NCBI GenBank assembly: GCA_030668875.1
Contig: DAOVER010000032.1
Span: 1-31,247, forward strand
DNA: 31,247 bases
From: Candidatus Heimdallarchaeota archaeon
GTDB taxonomy: Archaea > Asgardarchaeota > Heimdallarchaeia > Heimdallarchaeales > Heimdallarchaeaceae
Direction of reading: 5' to 3'
Shown: positions 2,183 to 31,247 of the stretch, piece by piece
How the letters are laid out: each line of letters opens with the position of its first letter
Position numbering within the stretch: position 1 is the first letter of the stretch
Notes under the pieces: generated by a model
Seen by the model: only the letters and a program-made list of their open reading frames with translations
The model's database searches: none
What the model was told of the DNA's origin: nothing
Translations under genes and position numbers: made by a program

Positions 2183-3916
2183 CTATTTGTTGTTTTCTTT
2201 AATGAGTAAATATTCCCTTACTATTTTCTCTAAATTCTCTTTCGTTATCCTAGTATCTTTACTAATTTTTCCATCTAGCATCTCTATATGACGGAATCCT
2301 GGTCTCAGTAATGTTAAATCGTGAGAACATGTTACAACGGTTGCTTTGTTGATTCTAACAATATCCATCAGAAGATCTATAATATGTCTTGCTAGTTCAG
2401 TATCAAGGTTTGCTGTGGGTTCATCAGTTAGGATGATTTTTGTCTTTCTTGATAGAGCTGATGCTAAGGCCGCTCTTTGTTTTTCACCTTCTGAGAGTTC
2501 ATAGGGATAGGCATCTAAACGATGGACAATATGACACTCTTTAGCAATTGAATCACTGTATTCCACATCGAATTCTTGATCTGAAAAAATACTGGGTATA
2601 AGGAAGTTCTCATGAACCATTATAGGATCAAAGAGGTTATTATGTTGAGAAACATAAGCAATGTTTGCAAGTCTAAAAGAGGAAATTTCTCTTTCTTTCT
2701 CTTCACTAATAGGATAGTTCATAACATTCACAAAACCGTCATTTGGTTTGAGTAAACCAGCTATCATGTTAAGAAGAGTGGTTTTACCAACACCACTAGG
2801 TCCAGATATGAAAACAAAGTCACCTTCATGAATATCTAAACTCATATTCTTGATAACTTCGTTATAACCTGCTTGAGAATGATAACCTTTTGTCACATTT
2901 TTGATTTTAATCAGTTTTTTCTTCTTAGCAGGAGGTATAAATGCTCTACTTAAGAGATGCTCAACATCTTTGAAAGTTATCTGTTCAAGCTTTTCTTCAC
3001 TTTCTTTAGCAGGTTTAGAAATTATCTCGTAAATCTTATCTCTACTTATTGCTTCAGGGTTCCAGAAAAGACCAAGTTTCCTAGAGGGGTGAGTGTCAAA
3101 TTCCACAATATCCTTGATAGCAGCTGTAGCCTTAACTTCATCAGGAACCCGAACAAAATTAGATGCATCCATATAGGAACGATTAATGTCAGAAGAATGC
3201 ATAAGAAATTCAAGTTCATCTCTTTCCATATCTCTACTTATACCCGCAAGTCTCCCATCTCTGATAATGAAGCTTTTCTCGAAAATGGTTCTGAACCTTA
3301 TATCATGAGTAACAACTACAATGGTCTTGCCTAAAGTTAGGTTAACCTGTCTCATCGCATCGATGAGATCTTGAGTGTTTTTTGTATCTAATTGACCAGT
3401 CGGTTCATCGGCTAGTAAAATCAAAGGATCCTTTGCAAGCGCGACGCCCATAGATAAGCGCATGGCTTCACCACCGGATAGTTTTCCCACTTTGTTATTG
3501 TATACGTGTCTAAGATTCAGCAATTTAGCGATTTCTTCAACATCCTTCCTTGCTTGCTCTTTGGGTAAATAGAACATCTTCTTAGGAATCATCAGGTTTT
3601 GTTTTACCGATAAATGTGAGAAGAGATTGTCACTGATAAATTGATTAATCAATCCAAGGTTATGAAAACGAAACTCCCTTCTTTCAAATTCCAGGAGGTG
3701 ATCATACCTTTGACCTTTCACACTTATTTGACCACTTGTTGGAAGTTCAATACCGGCAAGAATTTTTATTAGTGTGGTCTTACCTGCACCGCTAGGGCCG
3801 ATTACGGAGACAAGTTCTCCTTCTTTTATATTTAAATCCAATCCTCTTAGAGCAGCTACTTTGTAATTAGTTATTGGATCATGGTAGACCTTTATTACAT
3901 CAATACAGTTTATCAT
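2183..3916 (-). CDS. ABC ATPase with two tandem LolD/MacB-type nucleotide-binding domains
   Basis: NBD1: GPSGAGKT, LSGGE, ADEPT, VTHD. NBD2: GPSGVGKT, LSEGE, TDEPT, CSHD. Start moved to ATG 3916 (MINCIDVIK), which follows GGAGTG and lies just after the permease stop at 3922. Confidence 0.9.
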   Translation of the reverse strand: MINCIDVIKVYHDPITNYKVAALRGLDLNIKEGELVSVIGPSGAGKTTLIKILAGIELPTSGQISVKGQRYDHLLEFERREFRFHNLGLINQFISDNLFSHLSVKQNLMIPKKMFYLPKEQARKDVEEIAKLLNLRHVYNNKVGKLSGGEAMRLSMGVALAKDPLILLADEPTGQLDTKNTQDLIDAMRQVNLTLGKTIVVVTHDIRFRTIFEKSFIIRDGRLAGISRDMERDELEFLMHSSDINRSYMDASNFVRVPDEVKATAAIKDIVEFDTHPSRKLGLFWNPEAISRDKIYEIISKPAKESEEKLEQITFKDVEHLLSRAFIPPAKKKKLIKIKNVTKGYHSQAGYNEVIKNMSLDIHEGDFVFISGPSGVGKTTLLNMIAGLLKPNDGFVNVMNYPISEEKEREISSFRLANIAYVSQHNNLFDPIMVHENFLIPSIFSDQEFDVEYSDSIAKECHIVHRLDAYPYELSEGEKQRAALASALSRKTKIILTDEPTANLDTELARHIIDLLMDIVRINKATVVTCSHDLTLLRPGFRHIEMLDGKISKDTRITKENLEKIVREYLLIKENNK

Positions 3917-3921
3917 TTTTA

Positions 3922-6900
3922 TCACTCCAGATTCCTTGGTTGGTACTTTGCAAAATTCCTTTTCATTGATAAATAGTATATACCGAAAAACACCAGAGGT
4001 ATACCGAAAAACAAACATATCACTAGCACATACGGGAATGGCATAGCATAAGGTAATATATCATAAGCTAGTTCAATTAAGATAGAATTGAAAGCCCTCT
4101 CTATTCCATATCCTGCTAACGCACCTAGTAGCAACCCTGGCACTATTGCAGCTATAAACAACTCTATTGCTGACACAATAATAATTTGCCTCGTTGAAAT
4201 CCCTATTTTCTTCAAAGAGTCGTGTTTCACTTTTCTCCTCTGAAGAATTTTTAATGGATTACTTAGGCTTGTAAAAACAACTGCTGCGAGACATATAATT
4301 ATACCAAACACAAATTCCGCTACTATCATAGAATAGAAGGGGAAATACTGAAGTAGAGTTGCATCTGCATTTTCTTCTGAACTATGAACATTGAATCCAT
4401 AATCATCTTCAATCTCCTTAGATAGTTCGATATGATCTGTTAATGGTTTAAGTTTTACAATAAGTCTATCTAGTGAAATACCTAAGATATTGAATCTATC
4501 GAAAATTCTCAGAAAATTAGCCTTTGACATTACTATATCATATGAATATGAATACGCTCCTTCTAAATCACCTACATCATATATTATTGGGAAGTAATCA
4601 AATACTCCAGAAATACTAAATTCTACATCAGTTTCATCCTCTTTCAAGAAAGTATATGAATCTTCTTCAGCTGCATAGAATATTGAGAAAGGTGTTGAAA
4701 CCAACATCGTATTATTTTCTTGGAGGCTTTTGATATCTTGATCCCAATTTTCATAGAGATTACTTGAAGGCTTATAGGACGTTGCCAAATAATTTAGAGG
4801 ATCCTCGATAAGTAATATATTTAAATTTGCATTACCATGACTCACAGCTAATTGTGTGATATTTGCAAGTTTTGCAATTTCTGCATATTCTGCCTGAAAC
4901 TCTTCTAGAGAAACATTAGCCATACTCCATTCATTGACATACAGATCTCCTCCTCCATAGAAATAGGCTTGATTAGTAACTTGGTTTTGTATTTTGATAG
5001 GTGTTATTATGAAGGGTAACAAAAGCCCAACCAAAATAGTATATGTAAGGAAGGTATTATTGAACAAATTGATATCTGCTCGAACCTCAACTAATGAGAA
5101 TGAAGTTATTGATTTTCTTGCTGACCAAGAAAGTTTACTAATTACAAACATCAAAAGCTTATGCACACCTTTTAGCAGAAGTCCAACTCCTAACAGAGTT
5201 ATCATAAGCCCTATCCCCATCGAATAATAGAATATCAAGACGAATTGTTCAAAACCAGGCATAAATAGAAAAATCCCACCAAAGACGATCATAAAGAAAT
5301 AGCCAATGAAAAAGATACCTACACCCCAAGATATCAAGATAAAGGGTAAGAGGTATGGTAACAGTTGTTTAAGCAACTGAACCCACCTTTTTGGTGGTTT
5401 AACTTTTTTCTTATCTTTTCTTGCTAGAATTATTATTCTAGGGATGGATAGAAGTATTAGTATCACAAATGTTAGACTAATGAAAGCTGGTAAGCTAGTG
5501 AGAACTAAAGAATATATTTGATCATTAAACGTCAGGAATTTGTTTACTTTTAATAAAATCGGTAAAAGAATCATCGTTAATCCAAACCCTAACGCTATAG
5601 AAACCAAGGATTCAAAGAGTTTCATCATAGAATAGGAAAATGTAATCGTCCCCGTTGAGACTCCTTTCGATCTCAGAATTTTTATTTCTTGTTCAAAACT
5701 ACTTCCAAATAATTCGTTAACCTCGAAAACAAGGAACAAGGCTAGATATAGTATAGGAATGGACAGAAATATGAATAGAAGATAAGATACAGATAGGATA
5801 ATATCAATACCTGTAAATTCGATAATCAGCTCATACCCTATTGACCAATAACCTGATGAAGAAGATGATAATGGGTAAGGTCCTTCTTCCCTTAACAAAT
5901 AAACTTCTTCAATAAGATTTGTTATTTCTTGAGCATCTGAATCATCAAAATCATATTCAAACTGCATTTCTCCATATATTTGCAAGTGATATTTCGTTAC
6001 ATTTTCAAAATTTCTAAGAAAATACTCCATAGGAACCACAAGAGAATGATCATATGCTAAAGATTTGATGGGATCAGATGGTAAACTTAGTAATGCACAA
6101 GCATTTTCAATTTGATTGTGTGATGGTTGTTGAAATAGTCCCACAATCTCTATTTCAATTGTGTCAATATCAATGTCACCAGGAGAGCTAGTGGCATTTA
6201 TTGTAAGGACATCATTCAGCTCAATATTATAAGCTAATGCCGCACTCGAAGGTAGTATTGCTTCATTTTCTGAAGCAGGTAATCTTCCACTTGTAAGAAA
6301 ACTTCCAAAAACCGCAGAGTAATTTGACATGTATCCCCTGTATGTCAGATGAGTCATTTCTTCATACGGTGACAATTGAAACCCTACGACTCCTGTATGT
6401 ATATCATAATAGTAATTGTCGATCAATTTAGGTAGAATTTGCGATTTTGATTGTATTCCATACATAATTTCATCTAAGGTTTGTTCTGTAATATTTGGAT
6501 TTATTAGGCTTGTTCCTGATTCTGAGAGTGACATCAGATCTAAATTGAATCGGGCAGATGCACTATTATTATTACCAAAATCTGCATTTCTGGCAAATTC
6601 AACAATTAGATTATTTGCCTTTGAATCATAGAGAGTTGCACTTGTAAAAATGATTGATGCTAGTATTGTAAGACCTAGTAGACTGATAATCAGTCTCTTC
6701 TTATTAGCTTTCCATAAAGAAAATATTACACTGAAGATGTTGGTGAGAAAGAGCCAGAAATTGATAAAAACTAATTTAAATGTCGATACATCAGGTTTTA
6801 TCGGTCTTGTTAGGAACTTTTTAAGCTTAACAAATCCTCTGTTAATTCTTTTCATGAATATAAGGTAAATAGTACCAATAATCACTACTGGAATTACGAC

Positions 6901-8232
6901 AGTATACCAATATTTCATCCAGAAATATACAAAATCAGAATAACTTACAAGATCAAATAAAAAAGCCTTAGTTGGAAGCTCAACATTTGAATTTGTTTGA
7001 ACATTTATTGCCATTACAGTGCGTGATTTGAAATTGTAATCATCAAGTGTTTTTGATTCTATTAAAGTGGGGTAACTCGCTACATACGTTCTATTTTCAA
7101 AAAGAGTTATTGAAACCCTCTCAACATAATCTTCATCTCCGTAAAAAGAGTAGAAGTGTACATTTTCAATCAAAAATGAGAATAGTGAAATTGTTTGATT
7201 GTCATCTTCAATAATTGAAATTTTAGCTGATCGAAAATTTGGATTATATCTAGACATATCTAATATTTCAATAAAAGATGATGTAACAAACAAGAAAAAG
7301 GATGTGTTCTGATATGAAATCATCCTATATTTTTCATAATGATATACACCTAAATTGATAGTCTGGAAAGATTCCATGTTTATTGTATCATTTACAGAGA
7401 ACGAAACACTGTAAAACAGTTGAAATTCGAGTATAGTTAGATGGAATTTACCATCTTCACCAACGAATAACTGCGCTCTATCAAAACCACTTTCTATAAT
7501 AAGTATAGTAGAGTTGTAGTAAGAATAACTGCCTGTTACTCCAACGATAATAAGAGTTCTCAAAGAAGAATAACTGCTTTCATTATAGCTATAAATATCA
7601 AAAAATGCGAATAATTCACCATCAAGCATATGGAGAGATACTAATTCATTTGAGGGCATAGGTAAAATGAATAATTTCTCTGAAAGTGTACCATTCAAAT
7701 AAGCTGTAACTTGCGTAATTAACGTTCCTGAGGCGTGTTGTTCTTTGAAGAGAAGGTTGAAATAATTGTTACCTGCTATTATATTGATACTGTAAAAACC
7801 ACTTGAACTAGTGTATATTTGCTGATAATTACTTCCTGTCTCACTCCAACTAAACATCATTATAATGGATTCATAGTAACTTCCAGCGTGAGAGAAGAGA
7901 AGAACAACTTGCTCATCCATCATATAAGCTTTGAATATGTTATCATATGAAAAAGAGCTTCTGTAAATTTCAACCATTTGATTGTTGAATATGTGCAAAA
8001 TCACAAATGTGTTGTTCTCAAAGTTCTTCTTCACAAACACATGTAATTTTCCCTCACTGTCTACAACATTAGAAGAAGAAAATCTTGTAACATAATCATT
8101 TCCTGTGTCAGAAAGAAATATCGTAATATTTTGATCTGTAGCATTCACAGAAGTAGCTATAAATGTAGACAAAAACAATAAACAGAATAAAACAGGTAAT
8201 AACTTCCTCTTGCTGAAACCATCCATAAACAT
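3922..8232 (-). CDS. Giant FtsX/MacB-like ABC permease with an N-terminal extracellular domain
   Basis: 1436 aa. Signal peptide, about 430-aa ectodomain, TM helix, then two FtsX-like halves (EIKILRSKGVS; SLKKIGISTRQI...ELF...GLLLG). Directly upstream of a LolD/MacB-type ATPase. Confidence 0.82.
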   Translation of the reverse strand: MFMDGFSKRKLLPVLFCLLFLSTFIATSVNATDQNITIFLSDTGNDYVTRFSSSNVVDSEGKLHVFVKKNFENNTFVILHIFNNQMVEIYRSSFSYDNIFKAYMMDEQVVLLFSHAGSYYESIIMMFSWSETGSNYQQIYTSSSGFYSINIIAGNNYFNLLFKEQHASGTLITQVTAYLNGTLSEKLFILPMPSNELVSLHMLDGELFAFFDIYSYNESSYSSLRTLIIVGVTGSYSYYNSTILIIESGFDRAQLFVGEDGKFHLTILEFQLFYSVSFSVNDTINMESFQTINLGVYHYEKYRMISYQNTSFFLFVTSSFIEILDMSRYNPNFRSAKISIIEDDNQTISLFSFLIENVHFYSFYGDEDYVERVSITLFENRTYVASYPTLIESKTLDDYNFKSRTVMAINVQTNSNVELPTKAFLFDLVSYSDFVYFWMKYWYTVVIPVVIIGTIYLIFMKRINRGFVKLKKFLTRPIKPDVSTFKLVFINFWLFLTNIFSVIFSLWKANKKRLIISLLGLTILASIIFTSATLYDSKANNLIVEFARNADFGNNNSASARFNLDLMSLSESGTSLINPNITEQTLDEIMYGIQSKSQILPKLIDNYYYDIHTGVVGFQLSPYEEMTHLTYRGYMSNYSAVFGSFLTSGRLPASENEAILPSSAALAYNIELNDVLTINATSSPGDIDIDTIEIEIVGLFQQPSHNQIENACALLSLPSDPIKSLAYDHSLVVPMEYFLRNFENVTKYHLQIYGEMQFEYDFDDSDAQEITNLIEEVYLLREEGPYPLSSSSSGYWSIGYELIIEFTGIDIILSVSYLLFIFLSIPILYLALFLVFEVNELFGSSFEQEIKILRSKGVSTGTITFSYSMMKLFESLVSIALGFGLTMILLPILLKVNKFLTFNDQIYSLVLTSLPAFISLTFVILILLSIPRIIILARKDKKKVKPPKRWVQLLKQLLPYLLPFILISWGVGIFFIGYFFMIVFGGIFLFMPGFEQFVLIFYYSMGIGLMITLLGVGLLLKGVHKLLMFVISKLSWSARKSITSFSLVEVRADINLFNNTFLTYTILVGLLLPFIITPIKIQNQVTNQAYFYGGGDLYVNEWSMANVSLEEFQAEYAEIAKLANITQLAVSHGNANLNILLIEDPLNYLATSYKPSSNLYENWDQDIKSLQENNTMLVSTPFSIFYAAEEDSYTFLKEDETDVEFSISGVFDYFPIIYDVGDLEGAYSYSYDIVMSKANFLRIFDRFNILGISLDRLIVKLKPLTDHIELSKEIEDDYGFNVHSSEENADATLLQYFPFYSMIVAEFVFGIIICLAAVVFTSLSNPLKILQRRKVKHDSLKKIGISTRQIIIVSAIELFIAAIVPGLLLGALAGYGIERAFNSILIELAYDILPYAMPFPYVLVICLFFGIPLVFFGIYYLSMKRNFAKYQPRNLE

Positions 8233-21277: not shown

Positions 21278-21340
21278 AACAGAGCTTTCTTCTTATCTCA
21301 AATCTGAATATTTATCAACTGGAATTATTTTCCTTTGACC

Positions 21341-22390
21341 ATGTCTTTCGAGATCATTGATTTTATACCCAAAGAAGCAGATGAAAAGCTACTAGAAGCT
21401 TATTATGATTTTGCAGAAACATTGTTCAGGGAAACATATCCAACTGATCCATTAGTTCCAAGGGATCTTCATCACAAATTTTTATTGATGACTAAGACTG
21501 GGGAAAATGTAATTAGAAGATTGGTTCGCTCTGATATTTCCGGGAAGATTATTGGTCGGCTCTATCTAATGATTATTACTAAAGAAAACACAGGTTTTAA
21601 CGAAAACAAGCATTCAGCTGAAGTTTATATTAACGTTATCAAGAATCATAATTATGATACTATTTCACAAGAACTACTCAAAACTGCAATAGACGAGATG
21701 AAAAAATACGACTATGTTACTACAGCTGATACATGTAATTCTTTAGAAAGAGAATGGAAGTTTTGGGAAGGATTAGGAGCTAAATTGGCTTTAGAAGGCG
21801 CACAAAACAGATTGTTAGTCGAAGACATCGATTGGGATATGATAGAAAAGTGGAGACATGAAGGTCATAAACTTGCTGAGGTAGAACACGTTGATCTTTT
21901 CTCCTTTGAGAAATGTCCAGAGGAAATTATACAAGAATATACAACCACTTACAGCGAGATTATACGTTTAATTCCACTAGGTGAATTCGATTACATTCCT
22001 GAACCCACAACACCCTTCACAAGACGAGAAAAAGAAGAAAACTTAAGAAAAACAGGTTACGAGTGGCATACTTTAGCAACAAGAGAAAAAGATGGAGAAA
22101 TAAGTGGATTGACAGAGATTACTTATTCAAAATCTAGGCCCCATAAAGTAGATCAAGAGTTAACAGGAGTAAAACCCAAATATCGTGGAAGAGGTTTAGG
22201 TAAATGGATTAAGGCTGAGATGATGGTTTTCATAAAAAATAATTTTCCTGAAATTAAATATATATCAACTGGAAATGCAGATATGAATGCACCCATGCTT
22301 TCAATTAATGATCGAATGGGCTTCAAAAGTGTTCTAACTGAGAAGTGTTATACAATAAAGCTTGAAAAATTAGTGAAGGAACTGTTGTAA
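21341..22390 (+). CDS. Tandem-domain GNAT N-acetyltransferase (paralog 1)
   Basis: C-terminal domain TGVKPKYRGRGLGKWIK and TGNADMNAPMLSINDRMGF; N-terminal GNAT-like domain lacks a clear AcCoA motif. Confidence 0.88.
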   Translation: MSFEIIDFIPKEADEKLLEAYYDFAETLFRETYPTDPLVPRDLHHKFLLMTKTGENVIRRLVRSDISGKIIGRLYLMIITKENTGFNENKHSAEVYINVIKNHNYDTISQELLKTAIDEMKKYDYVTTADTCNSLEREWKFWEGLGAKLALEGAQNRLLVEDIDWDMIEKWRHEGHKLAEVEHVDLFSFEKCPEEIIQEYTTTYSEIIRLIPLGEFDYIPEPTTPFTRREKEENLRKTGYEWHTLATREKDGEISGLTEITYSKSRPHKVDQELTGVKPKYRGRGLGKWIKAEMMVFIKNNFPEIKYISTGNADMNAPMLSINDRMGFKSVLTEKCYTIKLEKLVKELL

Positions 22391-26714: not shown

Positions 26715-27963
26715 ATGACGAAAGTTCCTAGGGTGGAATGTATAGAAGTAAAGTATCAGCCTAGTTTAAGCAAGATTTGTCATCAAGTAAAAAATCTCTA
26801 TAATCGAGCGAATTTTCTGATAAAAACCTCCCTGAACAAACAGAACAAGCTCCTCTTTTACAATGATCTCAACAAGCTACTCAACCATGAGGAATGCTAC
26901 CGTGTTCTTCCTGCTCACACTGCCCAACATACCCTCAAACTCCTCACTCGAAACTGGAGAGGGTATTTTCGAGCAATGAAAGAATGGAAAGCCAACCCTG
27001 GAGATTTTTTCTCAATGCCCCACCCACCTAATTACAAAAAAAAGGATGGGGAAGTGGTAGCTATCTTCACTAACCAACAAGCGAGGATTGTTAATGGATG
27101 GTTGGTTTTGCCGAAAAAAGTGGGATACACCTACAAAACACGGTTGACCTCCCATACTGATTTACGAGAGGTGAGAATTATTCCAAGAAGAGTAGGGTAT
27201 ACCCTAGAATTAGTCTATCAGAAAACCTTACCTAAACTCCGCAAAAAATTGATAAGAAAGGGGGGGGTAGATTTAGGGATGATCAACCTTGCCACCTTTG
27301 TGGATAACCTCGGTGGGCAACCGATTGTTATCAAAGATGTAGGAAAAGGGATAAAATCCATAACACAATATTATTTGAAGAAACAGAAACAATTGCAGAT
27401 ACAATATGCTCAACAGCAAAGACAAAAACTGAAAGGAAGGAACCGATTGACCTATGGTCATACCTACTACAAACTCCGAGAAAAGTGGAGGAGGAAACTG
27501 AAAGACGCTATCCACAAGCTCACCTGCTATTTTGGTTGACTTGTGGGAGGAAAGAGGGCTACACGAGGTTATCATCGGTTATAATGAGAAGTGGAAACAA
27601 GGGGTGCAGTTCTGGAAGAAGATCACCCAGATGTTCGTCACCATACCCTTTCTACGTATCATCAACATCTTGAAGTATAAGGGAGCAGAGCGAGGGATAA
27701 AGGTAGAGATGATTCCCGAAGAATACACTTCCAAGTGTAGTTTCCTTGACAATGAATTCCCCAAAGAACGGAAAAGGTACAAGGGAAAAAGGATCCACCG
27801 AGGGTTGTTTCGTTCTGCTCAAGGCCACTTGATCAATGCTGATGTTAATGCTGCGTATAATATTCTGATAAAAAGCGATCCGAAAGCTTTGTCTAAACGC
27901 AAGGTGAACGGGGTAGGAGGATACGTAATGTATCCACAGAGAGTGAGTATAGAACTGTTATAG
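26715..27963 (+). pseudogene. tnpB: TnpB RNA-guided endonuclease, split by a +1 frameshift
   Basis: CHQVKNLYNRANF, GGVDLGMINL (RuvC-I), IPEEYTSKCSFLD, RGLFRS, NADVNAAYNI (RuvC-III). Extra T in the T4 run at 27530-27533 splits ORFs 26715-27539 and 27532-27963. Confidence 0.92.
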
Positions 27964-28178: not shown

Positions 28179-29216
28179 ATGTCCTTCGAAATCGTAGATA
28201 TTGAACCTCTTTCTGAAAAGGATGAACTGCTTAATCTATATCTTGATTTAGATGACAAAATCAGAAGAGAGTATTTTCCTAAAGACCCAATTACCCCCCG
28301 TGGAGTCTCATTGGAAAAGATTAAGCAACAAATTCCAGGTATTTTATATTTTAGAAAAGCCATTCTAGATCAACAGAGAAACATTATAATCGCTAGGCTC
28401 ATTTTGAAAATGTTTACAAAAAAGCATCAAGAGTATCATAGCAACAAGCACATCGCTGCACTGGATATCAATGTAATTAGGGAATATCGGGATGAAAAAT
28501 ATGCTGACATATTATTCAAGGAAGCAATTAAGATCATTAAGAAGTATAAGGACATCTCTATAGTTGAAGGATGCTGCATCTGGCAACAAGAGTGGGAAAT
28601 GTGGCAAAAACATGGAGCAAAGGAGACATATTCAGCTGATGTAAATCGAGTATATCTGGACGAAATTGATTGGGATATGATGAATGATTGGAGAGAAAAA
28701 GGGCTAGAAAGAGCTAAAGCTGAGGAGATTACACTTGAGATTTTTGAGAACTGTCCAGAAGAAATTATAGACGAGTATACAACTCTCTATTATGAAATAT
28801 TAACATTAGTACCTTGGGGTGACATTGAATGGTCACCTCCTGAAGAGACACCAGAATACAGAAGAATCAAGGAAGAAAGACATGCAAAGATGGGTGAAAA
28901 GTGGTACACAATTATCACTAAAGAAAAAGATGGCAAGATAAGTGGATTAACAGAAATCCTCTATGATCCTAAGGATGATTACTGGGTTCATCAACTGTTA
29001 ACAGGTGTTAAGCTAGAGTATAGGGATAGAGGTCTAGGAAAATGGTTGAAGACTGAGATATTATCTTTCATCCAGGAAAAGTTACCAAAAGTCATCTTGT
29101 TGCATACTGGTAATGCGGAAGTTAATGCGCCCATGCTTTCGATTAATGAACGAATAGGTTTTAAGAGATATCTAACAGACAAGTGTTTTACAGTTAAATT
29201 AGAAAAAATAGTATGA
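28179..29216 (+). CDS. Tandem-domain GNAT N-acetyltransferase (paralog 2)
   Basis: TGVKLEYRDRGLGKWLK and TGNAEVNAPMLSINERIGF; colinear with 21341-22390 from MSFEI onward. Confidence 0.88.
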   Translation: MSFEIVDIEPLSEKDELLNLYLDLDDKIRREYFPKDPITPRGVSLEKIKQQIPGILYFRKAILDQQRNIIIARLILKMFTKKHQEYHSNKHIAALDINVIREYRDEKYADILFKEAIKIIKKYKDISIVEGCCIWQQEWEMWQKHGAKETYSADVNRVYLDEIDWDMMNDWREKGLERAKAEEITLEIFENCPEEIIDEYTTLYYEILTLVPWGDIEWSPPEETPEYRRIKEERHAKMGEKWYTIITKEKDGKISGLTEILYDPKDDYWVHQLLTGVKLEYRDRGLGKWLKTEILSFIQEKLPKVILLHTGNAEVNAPMLSINERIGFKRYLTDKCFTVKLEKIV

Positions 29217-29291: not shown

Positions 29292-30998
29292 TTATTCTTC
29301 ATCATCTTCTTCTTGGATCTTATCTTTGAGCTCTTTTAATTCATTTTTCAAATCGATTATATCTTCCTTTAAATTGCTCATTTCATTATCTAAATCTCGA
29401 ATCTCTTTGGTGATTCTGCTAGCTTTCTTAAAATCATCTTCTGATTCAATTTGGCTAAGCATAGTTTTTTGTATGTTTAATTCTGTTTCTAATTCTCTAT
29501 ACAAAGTCTCTAATTTTTTATCCTTTAGAACAATTTCTTCCTGTGTTCTCTCTAACCTTCCTCTCTCTTTCTTAGATTTCTTGATAAGTTCAAGAAGCTC
29601 GTTGTGACATTTCTCAAGAGCTTCTTTATTGGTTTTAGAATTATCCCGACAATCACCAATATCTTCATCTATTTTTTCTAGCTCTTTTTCATGTTTCTTT
29701 ATTTTCTTCTCGTCAGTTTCTGTTGCTAGGAAGGTTTTAATCTCTTTCATTTCTCGCTCTTTTTCTTTGATATCTGTTTTTAATTCAGCTATGTCTTCTT
29801 TGTATTTTTGCTTAGTTTTGGTATACTTCTCAATATCTTTCTCAAAATCCTCGATTTTCTTCTCAAATTCCTTTAGCTCTTTATTCTTATCTGAGGATGT
29901 GAGTTTTATCTCTTCGATTTGATTATTAAGAGCGAGTATTTCCTGTTCAATTTGAGCGAATTTATCAAAATCTTCTTTAATATCAACAATCTCTTTCAGA
30001 TTCTTTTCCTTTTCTAGCTTGATTTCTAACTCTTTGTATTTGTCTTGTATTTGAAGGTCTATATGATGGATTTCAGTTTCAACGCTTGTAATCCTACTTT
30101 TGTCAGTTTCTAGCTTTTGTTTAAGATTATCAAGTTCTAACTTTATGTCTTGAACTTTTTGTTCTGCAATCTCAGACTTCTCTGTAATTTCTTTAGTTTC
30201 TGCAATTAGAATTTGAATTTTAGATTCATCCTTTTCTTCTTCAGGAGAATTTTCTAATGTTTGTCTCTTTTTATTATTTTCACGTAAAGTTCTGTTCAAA
30301 TCCCTAACAGTATCTTGTTTGATTTTAACCTCTTTAGACACCAACTCAATTCTTTCCTCTTCAAGAACAAGTTTATCTTTGATTTGTGATATTTCTTCTA
30401 CTGACTGTTCTTTTTCAACCTCTAATTTTTTGATACCATCTGTTAATTCACGAATTTCTAACTCTATTTTTTCTATATTTGATATATCAGATTTGGATGC
30501 GCCTAATAGAGTTTGAAGTTCTTTCTGTTTCTCTAATTTCTCATCCATGTTTTCATAGAGATGCTTTAAGTCTCTATCCTTTCTTCGAATATTTCGTTCG
30601 ATCAAATCCATTTGACCTATATCTATTAGTTTCTCAATTTTTGTGACATACTTCTGGATGGTGTTGATTTGTAGTTCTCCATCGACAACAAGTTTTCTGA
30701 AAAACAATGCCAAATTAGAGTTTTCACCTAGTTTTAAAATAAGAACGTCAACACTTTCAGTATCGAATAATAGCTGATTATAATTTTTGAAATCATAATT
30801 ACAAACCTCATAGAGTTTTTTAAAGCTAGAAAGAATATCAGCTAAATCATCACCTAGTTTTGGTATGTTTACCGATTCTTCAAATTGTTCGAAAGTGGTT
30901 TGAAAAACAGTTCCATCGTCGAAAAACATAGCTATGTGTTCAACTTCTGGGAGTGCTTTTCTTATTCTATCTATTGTTTTTTGTACCATTTTTTTCAC
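29292..30998 (-). CDS. Roadblock/LC7(MglB)-like N-terminal domain fused to a ~440-aa repetitive coiled coil
   Basis: N-terminal about 125 aa with alpha-beta-beta-alpha-beta-beta-beta-alpha pattern (RIRKALPEVEHIAMFFDDGTVF...QLLFDT..VDVLILKLGENSNLALFF), then continuous E/K-rich heptads. No Walker motifs. Start is GTG 30998 or ATG 30989. Confidence 0.7.
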   Translation of the reverse strand: MKKMVQKTIDRIRKALPEVEHIAMFFDDGTVFQTTFEQFEESVNIPKLGDDLADILSSFKKLYEVCNYDFKNYNQLLFDTESVDVLILKLGENSNLALFFRKLVVDGELQINTIQKYVTKIEKLIDIGQMDLIERNIRRKDRDLKHLYENMDEKLEKQKELQTLLGASKSDISNIEKIELEIRELTDGIKKLEVEKEQSVEEISQIKDKLVLEEERIELVSKEVKIKQDTVRDLNRTLRENNKKRQTLENSPEEEKDESKIQILIAETKEITEKSEIAEQKVQDIKLELDNLKQKLETDKSRITSVETEIHHIDLQIQDKYKELEIKLEKEKNLKEIVDIKEDFDKFAQIEQEILALNNQIEEIKLTSSDKNKELKEFEKKIEDFEKDIEKYTKTKQKYKEDIAELKTDIKEKEREMKEIKTFLATETDEKKIKKHEKELEKIDEDIGDCRDNSKTNKEALEKCHNELLELIKKSKKERGRLERTQEEIVLKDKKLETLYRELETELNIQKTMLSQIESEDDFKKASRITKEIRDLDNEMSNLKEDIIDLKNELKELKDKIQEEDDEE

Positions 30999-30999
30999 A

Positions 31000-31247
31000 T
31001 TATGAAATAATTAAAGACCTGAATCTATTTATTCCTCTACTAATATTCGATTTTGCCTGTTCAGTACCAAATCTGGAGATTATAAAAAGTATTCCAATTG
31101 TTAGAAGAACAGCGAAAATCATAATTAAACCGATGTAGTATGTATCTATTGAAAAGAAAGTAAAATAAGCTGTACCTAAGTATAACTGAAGAAGTGTTGT
31201 AGTAAATCCTAGTTTCCAAAAGGTTATCATTTTTATTGGACGATTGT
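31000..31247 (-). CDS. Membrane protein, possibly 5'-truncated by the window edge
   Basis: Two hydrophobic segments. The frame is open from ATG 31230 to the window end. The stop abuts the start of the Roadblock gene. Confidence 0.55.
   Translation of the reverse strand, partial: NRPIKMITFWKLGFTTTLLQLYLGTAYFTFFSIDTYYIGLIMIFAVLLTIGILFIISRFGTEQAKSNISRGINRFRSLIIS

Follow-up and report, generated by a model that had tools for sequence, protein, structure and literature searches.

A predicted Roadblock-fold protein with a duplicated coiled-coil tail is encoded beside an ion-transporter superfamily permease in Asgard archaea

The window analyzed here is the entire contig C31, a stretch of 31,247 bases from a 3.2-Mb Asgard genome bin. 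Near its end, on the minus strand, lies an open reading frame (ORF) for a protein of 568 residues (P0001), in which a divergent Roadblock/MglB-fold head is followed by a long coiled coil (a tail of ~430 to 460 residues) built from two duplicated ~172-residue units. Public relatives are labelled Heimdallarchaeota or Heimdallarchaeaceae. The 568-residue product begins at a GTG codon; public gene calls use an alternative ATG at 30989, which gives 565 residues (P0002). Residue numbers throughout are those of the 568-residue version. Directly upstream, the contig ends inside the gene for a permease, which is described below as the partner of the coiled-coil protein. The gene, its head and the neighboring permease fragment are located as follows.

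29292-30998, minus strand: the whole coil gene, 568 residues from the GTG at 30998, with the stop codon at 29292-29294.
30669-30998, minus strand: Roadblock/MglB-fold head, residues 1-110, assigned from AlphaFold2, Foldseek and ESM Atlas.
31000-31247, minus strand: 3' end of the gene for the partner ArsB/CitMHS/MamN-like permease (last 81 codons, then the stop codon at 31000-31002); the contig ends inside this gene.

Eleven full-length orthologues of 44 to 88% identity align with zero internal gaps, which marks the ORF at 29292-30998 as a real, conserved gene under selection. Two of the orthologues (P0008 and P0009) carry the Joint Genome Institute (JGI) name "chromosome segregation ATPase," a misannotation driven by the coiled coil; they have no ATPase domain. 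A literature search that included full text (Roadblock together with coiled coil or permease, in Asgard archaea) returned no description of this architecture or of the gene pair, and the Asgard Roadblock papers checked do not mention coiled coils.

The head was modeled with AlphaFold2 from 47 homologues (predicted local distance difference test score [pLDDT], 82; predicted template-modeling score [pTM], 0.77). The model contains a helix at residues 2-15, strands at 19-26 and 31-34, a helix at 45-65 and strands at 75-79, 83-89 and 94-101. Its topology, helix-strand-strand-helix-strand-strand-strand-helix, is exactly the element order of Roadblock/LC7/MglB domains. When the head was compared with the PDB by Foldseek, the best 50 matches were all MglB, Roadblock, LAMTOR or Rag C-terminal domains (best E value, 6e-7; template-modeling [TM] scores, 0.55 to 0.73), and a shape search of the ESM Atlas returned Robl_LC7 clusters at TM scores of 0.66 to 0.77. 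The agreement of modeled topology, Foldseek and ESM Atlas indicates that the head is a divergent Roadblock fold, as had been proposed in a preliminary description of this DNA made from its letters and reading frames. With the full-length model as the Foldseek query, meaningful matches were confined to the head; rows covering the long coil had root mean square deviations (rmsd) of 50 to 98 Å.

At the level of sequence, the relation of the head to Robl_LC7 appears remote and below curated thresholds. P0001 had no Pfam match at E ≤ 1, and residues 1-140 matched nothing in Pfam and NCBIfam. Among the 47 members of the head family, 10 had a weak match to Pfam Robl_LC7 (PF03259), the best at an E value of 4.6e-4, again below the curated thresholds. 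A profile of the 47 homologues, compared with PDB sequences, had the Asgard Roadblock3 structure 9jue as its top match (E value, 0.016) over the full length. An exhaustive HMMER search with residues 1-135 against 1.8 billion representatives found 63 clusters, many of which are stand-alone domains of 120 to 140 residues or proteins of 200 to 300 residues with a charged helical tail. The MglB/Roadblock/LC7 proteins (PF03259), with Asgard examples from Thorarchaeota (7f8m) and Prometheoarchaeum MK-D1 (9jue and 9jq8), share the fold and element order of the head (Foldseek E values, 6e-7 to 5e-5), but the solved members are only 10 to 22% identical to it. Known members are stand-alone domains of ~120 to 160 residues, whereas here a helical tail of ~460 residues is added. 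The genetic partner differs as well: bacterial MglB is encoded with its GTPase, MglA, and the Roadblock gene described here is encoded with a permease.

The 81 permease codons in the window (31000-31245) are 93% identical to residues 409-489 of the permease at locus L002. The first ~450 codons lie at the end of another contig of the same assembly, C48, in which positions 58985-60328 cover residues 5-454. Since the last 141 nucleotides of C48 (L039) are identical to the end of the window, the two contigs join inside the permease gene, and the assembly break splits the gene pair. The permease was invisible to the preliminary description because the contig ends 250 bases upstream of the coil gene. 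Within the window, the distance from the permease stop codon to the start of its partner is 1 to 10 nucleotides.

This arrangement is not peculiar to the window. In each of the 37 loci checked, the head gene has a same-strand neighbor that encodes an ArsB/CitMHS-type permease of 450 to 510 residues, upstream in 34 and downstream in 3, with spacings that range from an overlap of a few bases to ~80 bases. Even head-only members of the family, of 126 to 142 residues, are paired with the permease. The phyletic distributions of the two genes are nearly identical. Of 300 Asgard genomes sampled, 69 have a strong head match, and every one of these carries the permease as well (E ≤ 1e-103). Counts for head and permease are equal in families f1 (21 of 27 genomes), f5 (9 of 21) and f27 (2 of 7); in family f14 the head is found in 48 of 68 genomes and the permease in 39 of 68, and all 36 strong-head genomes of that family carry the permease. 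Seventeen sampled families have neither gene, the large ones being f2, f11 and f17. By its profile matches, the permease is an uncharacterized member of the ion-transporter superfamily: its best curated match is MamN, at 117 to 120 bits against a cut-off of 500, followed by ArsB and DASS.

Two variations in gene order were observed. Three genomes of genus g45 (G233, G057 and G203) have the inverted order, with the permease downstream of the Roadblock gene, either ~12 to 85 bases away or in slight overlap with it (L044, L045 and L046, which are longer fetches of the same places as L016, L023 and L028); other g45 genomes keep the usual permease-first order. In genome G086 of genus g4 (L043, G086:C31:12000-24000), a single strand carries, in succession, a permease, a long partner (552 residues), a permease, a second long partner (550 residues) and a permease. 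The two partner copies are 28 to 35% identical to the window protein.

We found no conserved genes on the far side of the pair. The genes downstream of it differ among L002, L003 and a Logan contig, and the 387-residue protein and GTPase at L005 recur in no other locus. These neighborhoods bear on a second reading of the head, as an MglB-like regulator (a platform for GTPase activation or guanine nucleotide exchange) of a Ras-, Arf- or Rag-like GTPase encoded elsewhere, with the rod as a tether or ruler. Such a role would be compatible with permease binding. The closest solved folds, MglB with MglA and the Ragulator/Rag Roadblock domains, point toward it, as do the Arf/Ras GTPases fused to Roadblock domains that Asgard genomes carry (ESM Atlas rows) and the JGI name "predicted regulator of Ras-like GTPase activity" on two head-only members. 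At one locus pair (L005/L006) an Arf/Ras-like GTPase gene does lie two genes downstream, but none of the other 30 loci has an equivalent gene. Small GTPase genes are not a conserved neighbor of the family; its strictly conserved neighbor is the permease. Moreover, the Roadblock fold also serves as a plain dimerization or scaffold module, as in dynein LC7, and MglB is not known to have a catalytic signature for which a sequence could be examined. We consider a GTPase regulator rather unlikely, and the "GTPase-interacting head" of the preliminary description finds no support in the gene neighborhoods.

The tail carries a recurring aspartate-led pattern (D-motif), which the preliminary description had placed at D171, D257, D343, D429 and D522 (codons starting at 30488, 30230, 29972, 29714 and 29435). 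These positions and their spacings of 86, 86, 86 and 93 residues were confirmed, and the pattern matches nowhere else in the protein. Because the pattern had been fitted after the fact, by eye, periodicity was tested independently. In an ungapped BLOSUM62 self-comparison of the coil, offset 86 topped all offsets (z score, 6.0), above the heptad offsets 7 and 14. The favored offsets were 2 mod 7 near 86, 4 mod 7 near 172 and 6 mod 7 near 258; therefore, the heptad phase jumps by +2 once per unit. Heptad-phase runs switch near residues 165, 250, 335, 425, 450 and 513. In an hhalign profile self-alignment of the 11 orthologues, offset 173-179 scored 97.9 (P value, 1e-12) and offset 86-93 scored 57.0 (P value, 7e-7), with further matches at offsets 352 (P value, 3e-5) and 259-265 (P value, 7e-4). 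In column-block shuffle controls (60 each), the best off-diagonal score never rose above 24.7 for 7-column blocks or above 52.8 for 28-column blocks, so the repeat beats its shuffled controls. The units of the tail, in the order of the protein, are as follows.

30495-30668, minus strand: unit B0, residues 111-168, the third Roadblock helix extended as a 55-residue stalk and ending in the conserved LYxxM..LGAS joint.
30237-30494, minus strand: unit A1, residues 169-254, with the D171 motif; first arm of predicted hairpin 1 (helix 169-249, turn 250-257).
29979-30236, minus strand: unit B1, residues 255-340, with the D257 motif; return arm of predicted hairpin 1, ending in the LYxxLE joint.
29721-29978, minus strand: unit A2, residues 341-426, with the D343 motif; first arm of predicted hairpin 2, modeled as a continuation of the B1 helix (258-426).
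29442-29720, minus strand: unit B2, residues 427-519, with the D429 motif; return arm of predicted hairpin 2, containing the lineage-specific extra heptad 448-454.
29295-29441, minus strand: unit A3, residues 520-568, with the D522 motif; half-length terminal helix (520-566).

Like units resemble each other (z scores of 3.5 for A1-A2, 5.3 for A2-A3, 3.0 for A1-A3 and 3.0 for B1-B2), whereas A and B units are only weakly similar (z scores, 0.4 to 2.1). Unit B0, a helix at 111-165 in the full-length model, resembles the ends of B1 and B2 (z scores of 3.2 and 3.0), and its residues G166, A167 and S168 are invariant in the orthologue alignment. Taken together, these tests indicate that the internal repeat is real, that the homologous repeat is the A+B double unit of 172 to 179 residues and that 86 is its half period. 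The 86-residue repeat of the preliminary description thus stands as a periodicity and not as the homologous period, which is instead the 172-residue super-repeat that it had also suggested. Its reading of the spacing of 93 as 86 plus one heptad is borne out by the genus g4 copies, which lack exactly 7 residues at 448-454. The likeness to a UVR-type hairpin did not hold up: PF02151 had no match at E ≤ 10 on the junction segments (residues 140-215, 225-290, 315-390, 400-465 and 490-568) or on the whole tail.

Most orthologues carry D-I-C-D-C in and near the extra heptad, at window positions 29640-29660 (residues 446-453), and C-H 14 residues further on, at 29604-29609 (residues 464-465). These residues may form a metal or disulfide site specific to the lineage, or they may mean nothing. 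We make no claim of a metal site at the C-x-C of residues 448-450, as only C450 is invariant, P0001 has G448 and the heptad is absent in genus g4.

The head family was found in 81 of the 300 sampled Asgard genomes, 12 of which have only weak head matches (E values, 1e-6 to 1e-9) that resemble other Roadblock paralogues; the head of the window protein matches the family model at an E value of 5.9e-48. Linkage of the head to the permease is constant across the family, while the tail may be absent, ~100 residues or 430 residues long. The long form (open frames of 553 to 572 residues) occurs in family f1 only, in 21 of 27 genomes from genera g1, g2 and g4. Most relatives are short forms, of 205 to 229 residues in families f5 and f14. 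Head-only forms (126 to 142 residues overall and 131 to 142 in the genome survey) occur in family f27 and in a few genomes elsewhere. Short forms (P0021, P0031 and loci L009-L038) and head-only forms have heads 40 to 55% identical to that of the long form and the same permease neighbor. The short forms share the stalk, D-motif joint and C-terminal helix with the long form; both short and head-only forms lack the ~352 residues (units A1 to B2) of the family f1 long form. An ESM Atlas feature search found a 221-residue archaeal cluster, probably a short form, at 0.80 only, which is below the trust level. The architecture, which the preliminary description did not recognize, is thus not unique but the expanded form of a family of 205 to 229 residues in other Asgard lineages.

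How the two forms are related can be read from their alignment. Long-form residues 4-210 align collinearly with a profile of 25 short forms. The last 75 residues of that profile (138-212) align a second time, end to end, with long-form residues 494-568 (P value, ~5e-6), in agreement with the internal offset of 352. Unit A3 likewise corresponds over its whole length to the C-terminal helix of the short forms. This dual alignment indicates that the long form is a short form (head, stalk, joint and return helix) with two A+B double units inserted at the joint.

To what shape the repeats give rise was considered from a full-length AlphaFold2 monomer model built with 11 sequences (mean pLDDT, 78.8; pTM, 0.40). 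The tail is modeled as helices at 111-165, 169-249, 258-426, 430-515 and 520-566. The pLDDT exceeds 90 in the arms and falls to 78 to 79 at 331-350, the B1-A2 joint. To infer the geometry of the rod, the model was aligned structurally against the PDB, and the stretches of it that match solved hairpins were used. The YscO helical hairpin 4mh6 fits model residues 180-340 (159 residues; rmsd, 2.5), prefoldin fits 208-301 (rmsd, 1.5), the Smc antiparallel coil 5xg2 fits 308-522 (212 residues; rmsd, 4.1), EnvC fits 342-516 (172 residues; rmsd, 3.5) and a dynein stalk fits 359-500 (141 residues; rmsd, 2.3). Hence, the model appears to contain two antiparallel hairpins, A1/B1 with a turn at 250-257 and A2/B2 with a turn at 427-429. 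They correspond to residues 169-340 and 343-515, each ~12 nm long, with arms of 81 to 86 residues (~12 to 13 nm), and the ~13 nm per arm of the preliminary description is reproduced in the monomer model. Both hairpins share the central helix 258-426, so the outer helix ends (169 and 515) meet near the middle of the rod, where the stalk would enter and the last helix would leave. The preliminary description also had the helices folding back at the D-motifs. The model retains antiparallel arms and breaks the rod at four of the five motifs, but the chain is predicted to turn back only at D257 and D429; D171 and D522 are breaks, and D343 stays helical.

The hairpins have several structural analogues. 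The rod halves superpose, over 141 to 212 residues at rmsd values of 2.3 to 4.1, on Smc/Rad50 arms (5xg2, 5nnv and 5gox), the dynein stalk (8i3j and 5ayh), YscO (4mh6) and EnvC with FtsEX (8tzl), matches that are to be read as analogy only, since Z scores of 11 to 15 are reachable by chance for long helical models. EnvC (8tzl) is likewise a coiled-coil hairpin held by a membrane permease-like complex, FtsEX. The rod protein contains none of the ATPase, hinge, microtubule-binding or LytM domains of these analogues. The coil has also given rise to the database name on two orthologues, and with it to the reading of the protein as an SMC/Rad50-like chromosome protein. Besides the JGI names of P0008 and P0009, NCBIfam SMC_prok_B (E value, 1e-11) and Rad50 models (E value, 4e-6) match the coil. 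These matches reach at most 43 bits against cut-offs of 567 to 1,000 and cover only the coiled coil. The protein has no ATPase head, hinge or zinc hook, Pfam detects no ATPase domain in it, its N terminus has the Roadblock fold, and no partner of the ScpA/B or Mre11 type lies in the neighborhood. An SMC/Rad50-like function is extremely improbable and was rejected for want of a nucleotide-binding domain.

Three observations, made on the sequences and independent of the model, fit the hairpins. The arms are matched in length (81 versus 83 residues and 84 versus 86 residues), there are no rod indels among orthologues down to 44% identity, and the indels in the genus g4 copies (28 to 35% identical) fall at 252 (2 residues), 422-426 (3 to 4 residues) and 448-454 (7 residues), so that both arm pairs stay length-matched. 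Two single-residue gaps in one copy are exceptions to this placement. The same observations bear on a different structure for the tail, a parallel two-stranded coiled coil segmented by linkers at the D-motifs, as in intermediate-filament-like proteins, that would form filaments or a lattice under the membrane. The fold-back would then be an artefact of modeling a monomer, and monomer AlphaFold models commonly do fold long coils back on themselves. A Roadblock dimer would probably send two stalks out side by side, favoring a parallel start; in addition, the rod is highly charged with only an a/d hydrophobic seam, and the joint at 340-343 stays helical in the model. A parallel filament is disfavored because the arms are matched across each predicted turn, and remain so after the g4 indels, and because indels lie at predicted turns and not as whole heptads along the rod, save for the single 7-residue case. 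The short form, in which a joint is flanked by a stalk and a return helix of similar length, also suits a hairpin better than a filament former. A two-copy prediction of residues 105-568, made without the head and without controls, scored 0.00 and counts neither way. We judge the filament structure to be improbable.

Since the head and permease are constant and the tail is variable, we read the protein as the cytoplasmic partner of the permease. We lean, with modest confidence, toward the view that the gene encodes the Heimdallarchaeaceae long form of an Asgard family in which the Roadblock head is the dedicated cytoplasmic partner of one ArsB/CitMHS/MamN-like permease. All characterized Roadblock proteins form homo- or heterodimers, through the strand edge and the second helix, and related transporters of the ion-transporter superfamily are dimers too. 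A head dimer, with dimerization assumed from known Roadblock behavior, would dock on the cytoplasmic face of the permease, and the helical tail would be an appendage whose task is to space, bundle or recruit other components. Ancestrally, the tail would have consisted of the stalk helix, the conserved joint and the return helix. In family f1, ~352 residues (two A+B double units of 172 to 179 residues) would have been inserted at the joint by internal duplication. From the four helices of 81 to 86 residues, two antiparallel hairpins (each ~12 nm) would most likely form, connected at the middle of the rod, and the rod would act as a fixed-length spacer or scaffold attached to the transporter. 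In this proposal, permease binding, the oligomeric state, the rod geometry and any link to a GTPase are what we infer.

Several points weigh against the proposed partnership and the shape of its rod. The permease-head link is one of gene context. Genome G296 of family f30 (L049, G296:C15:5500-11500) encodes a close permease (E value, 1e-178) without an adjacent partner; hence, the permease can function by itself. A search over longer proteins returned no fused permease-head protein among 22 matches, a weak negative. The hairpins are predicted from a monomer AlphaFold model, a type of model prone to folding long coils back; the full-length pTM is only 0.40, and the geometry follows from superposed residue ranges. 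Finally, the homologous B-to-A joints, which share the sequence pattern LYxxLE ... S/E-D-x-x-K/N, are modeled unlike one another, as breaks at 166-168 and 516-519 and as continuous helix at 340-343. The permease of G296 itself has a longer basic C-terminal tail.

In a more far-reaching version of the partnership, the permease and the Roadblock protein would be an archaeal equivalent of the nutrient-sensing platform that a transporter and Ragulator form in eukaryotes. A substrate-sensing transporter would anchor the head, the head would pair with the Roadblock domain of a Rag- or Arf-like GTPase, and the double-hairpin rod would hold effectors at a set distance from the membrane. On eukaryotic lysosomes, where Ragulator (LAMTOR dimers) acts with Rag GTPases and SLC38A9, a Roadblock platform is likewise functionally tied to a membrane transporter, and LAMTOR and Rag are among the fold matches of the head. 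The comparison is an analogy, with homology shown for the fold only. SLC38A9 is of the amino-acid/polyamine type and the permease here of the ArsB/CitMHS type, and the Asgard pair has no linked GTPase and no equivalent of the lipid-anchored LAMTOR1. We hold this version to be very doubtful.

Other genes were noted in the window. The genes at 28179-29216 and 21335-22390, both on the plus strand, encode paralogous proteins of ~345 to 350 residues with a C-terminal GNAT acetyltransferase domain. The former is convergent to the coil gene, and its counterpart also lies after the coil gene in L002, an arrangement that more distant loci lack. A TnpB-type gene at 26715-27963 (plus strand) is split into two frames, an OrfB_IS605 part and a Cas12f1-like TNB part. 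At 3922-8232 (minus strand) lies the gene for a 1,436-residue protein for which Pfam gives a single match, to a C-terminal FtsX-like permease domain, a large transporter of the MacB/FtsX type; its gene runs ~100 bases into the beginning of the following gene on that strand, which encodes a double ABC ATPase (2183-4018).

In Asgard archaea, Roadblock domains belong to the "eukaryotic signature" modules, and they are usually taken to regulate GTPases. The family described here is a divergent one that is missed by standard profiles, and its members stand in databases as hypothetical or, wrongly, as "chromosome segregation ATPase." Its sole constant genetic partner is a membrane transporter, not a GTPase, and the pair offers a two-protein system for studying archaeal Roadblock platforms at membranes. 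Further, the long form is a clean natural case of a coiled coil that grows by duplication of a 172-residue double unit with its arm lengths kept fixed, which may be useful for understanding rods that measure length.

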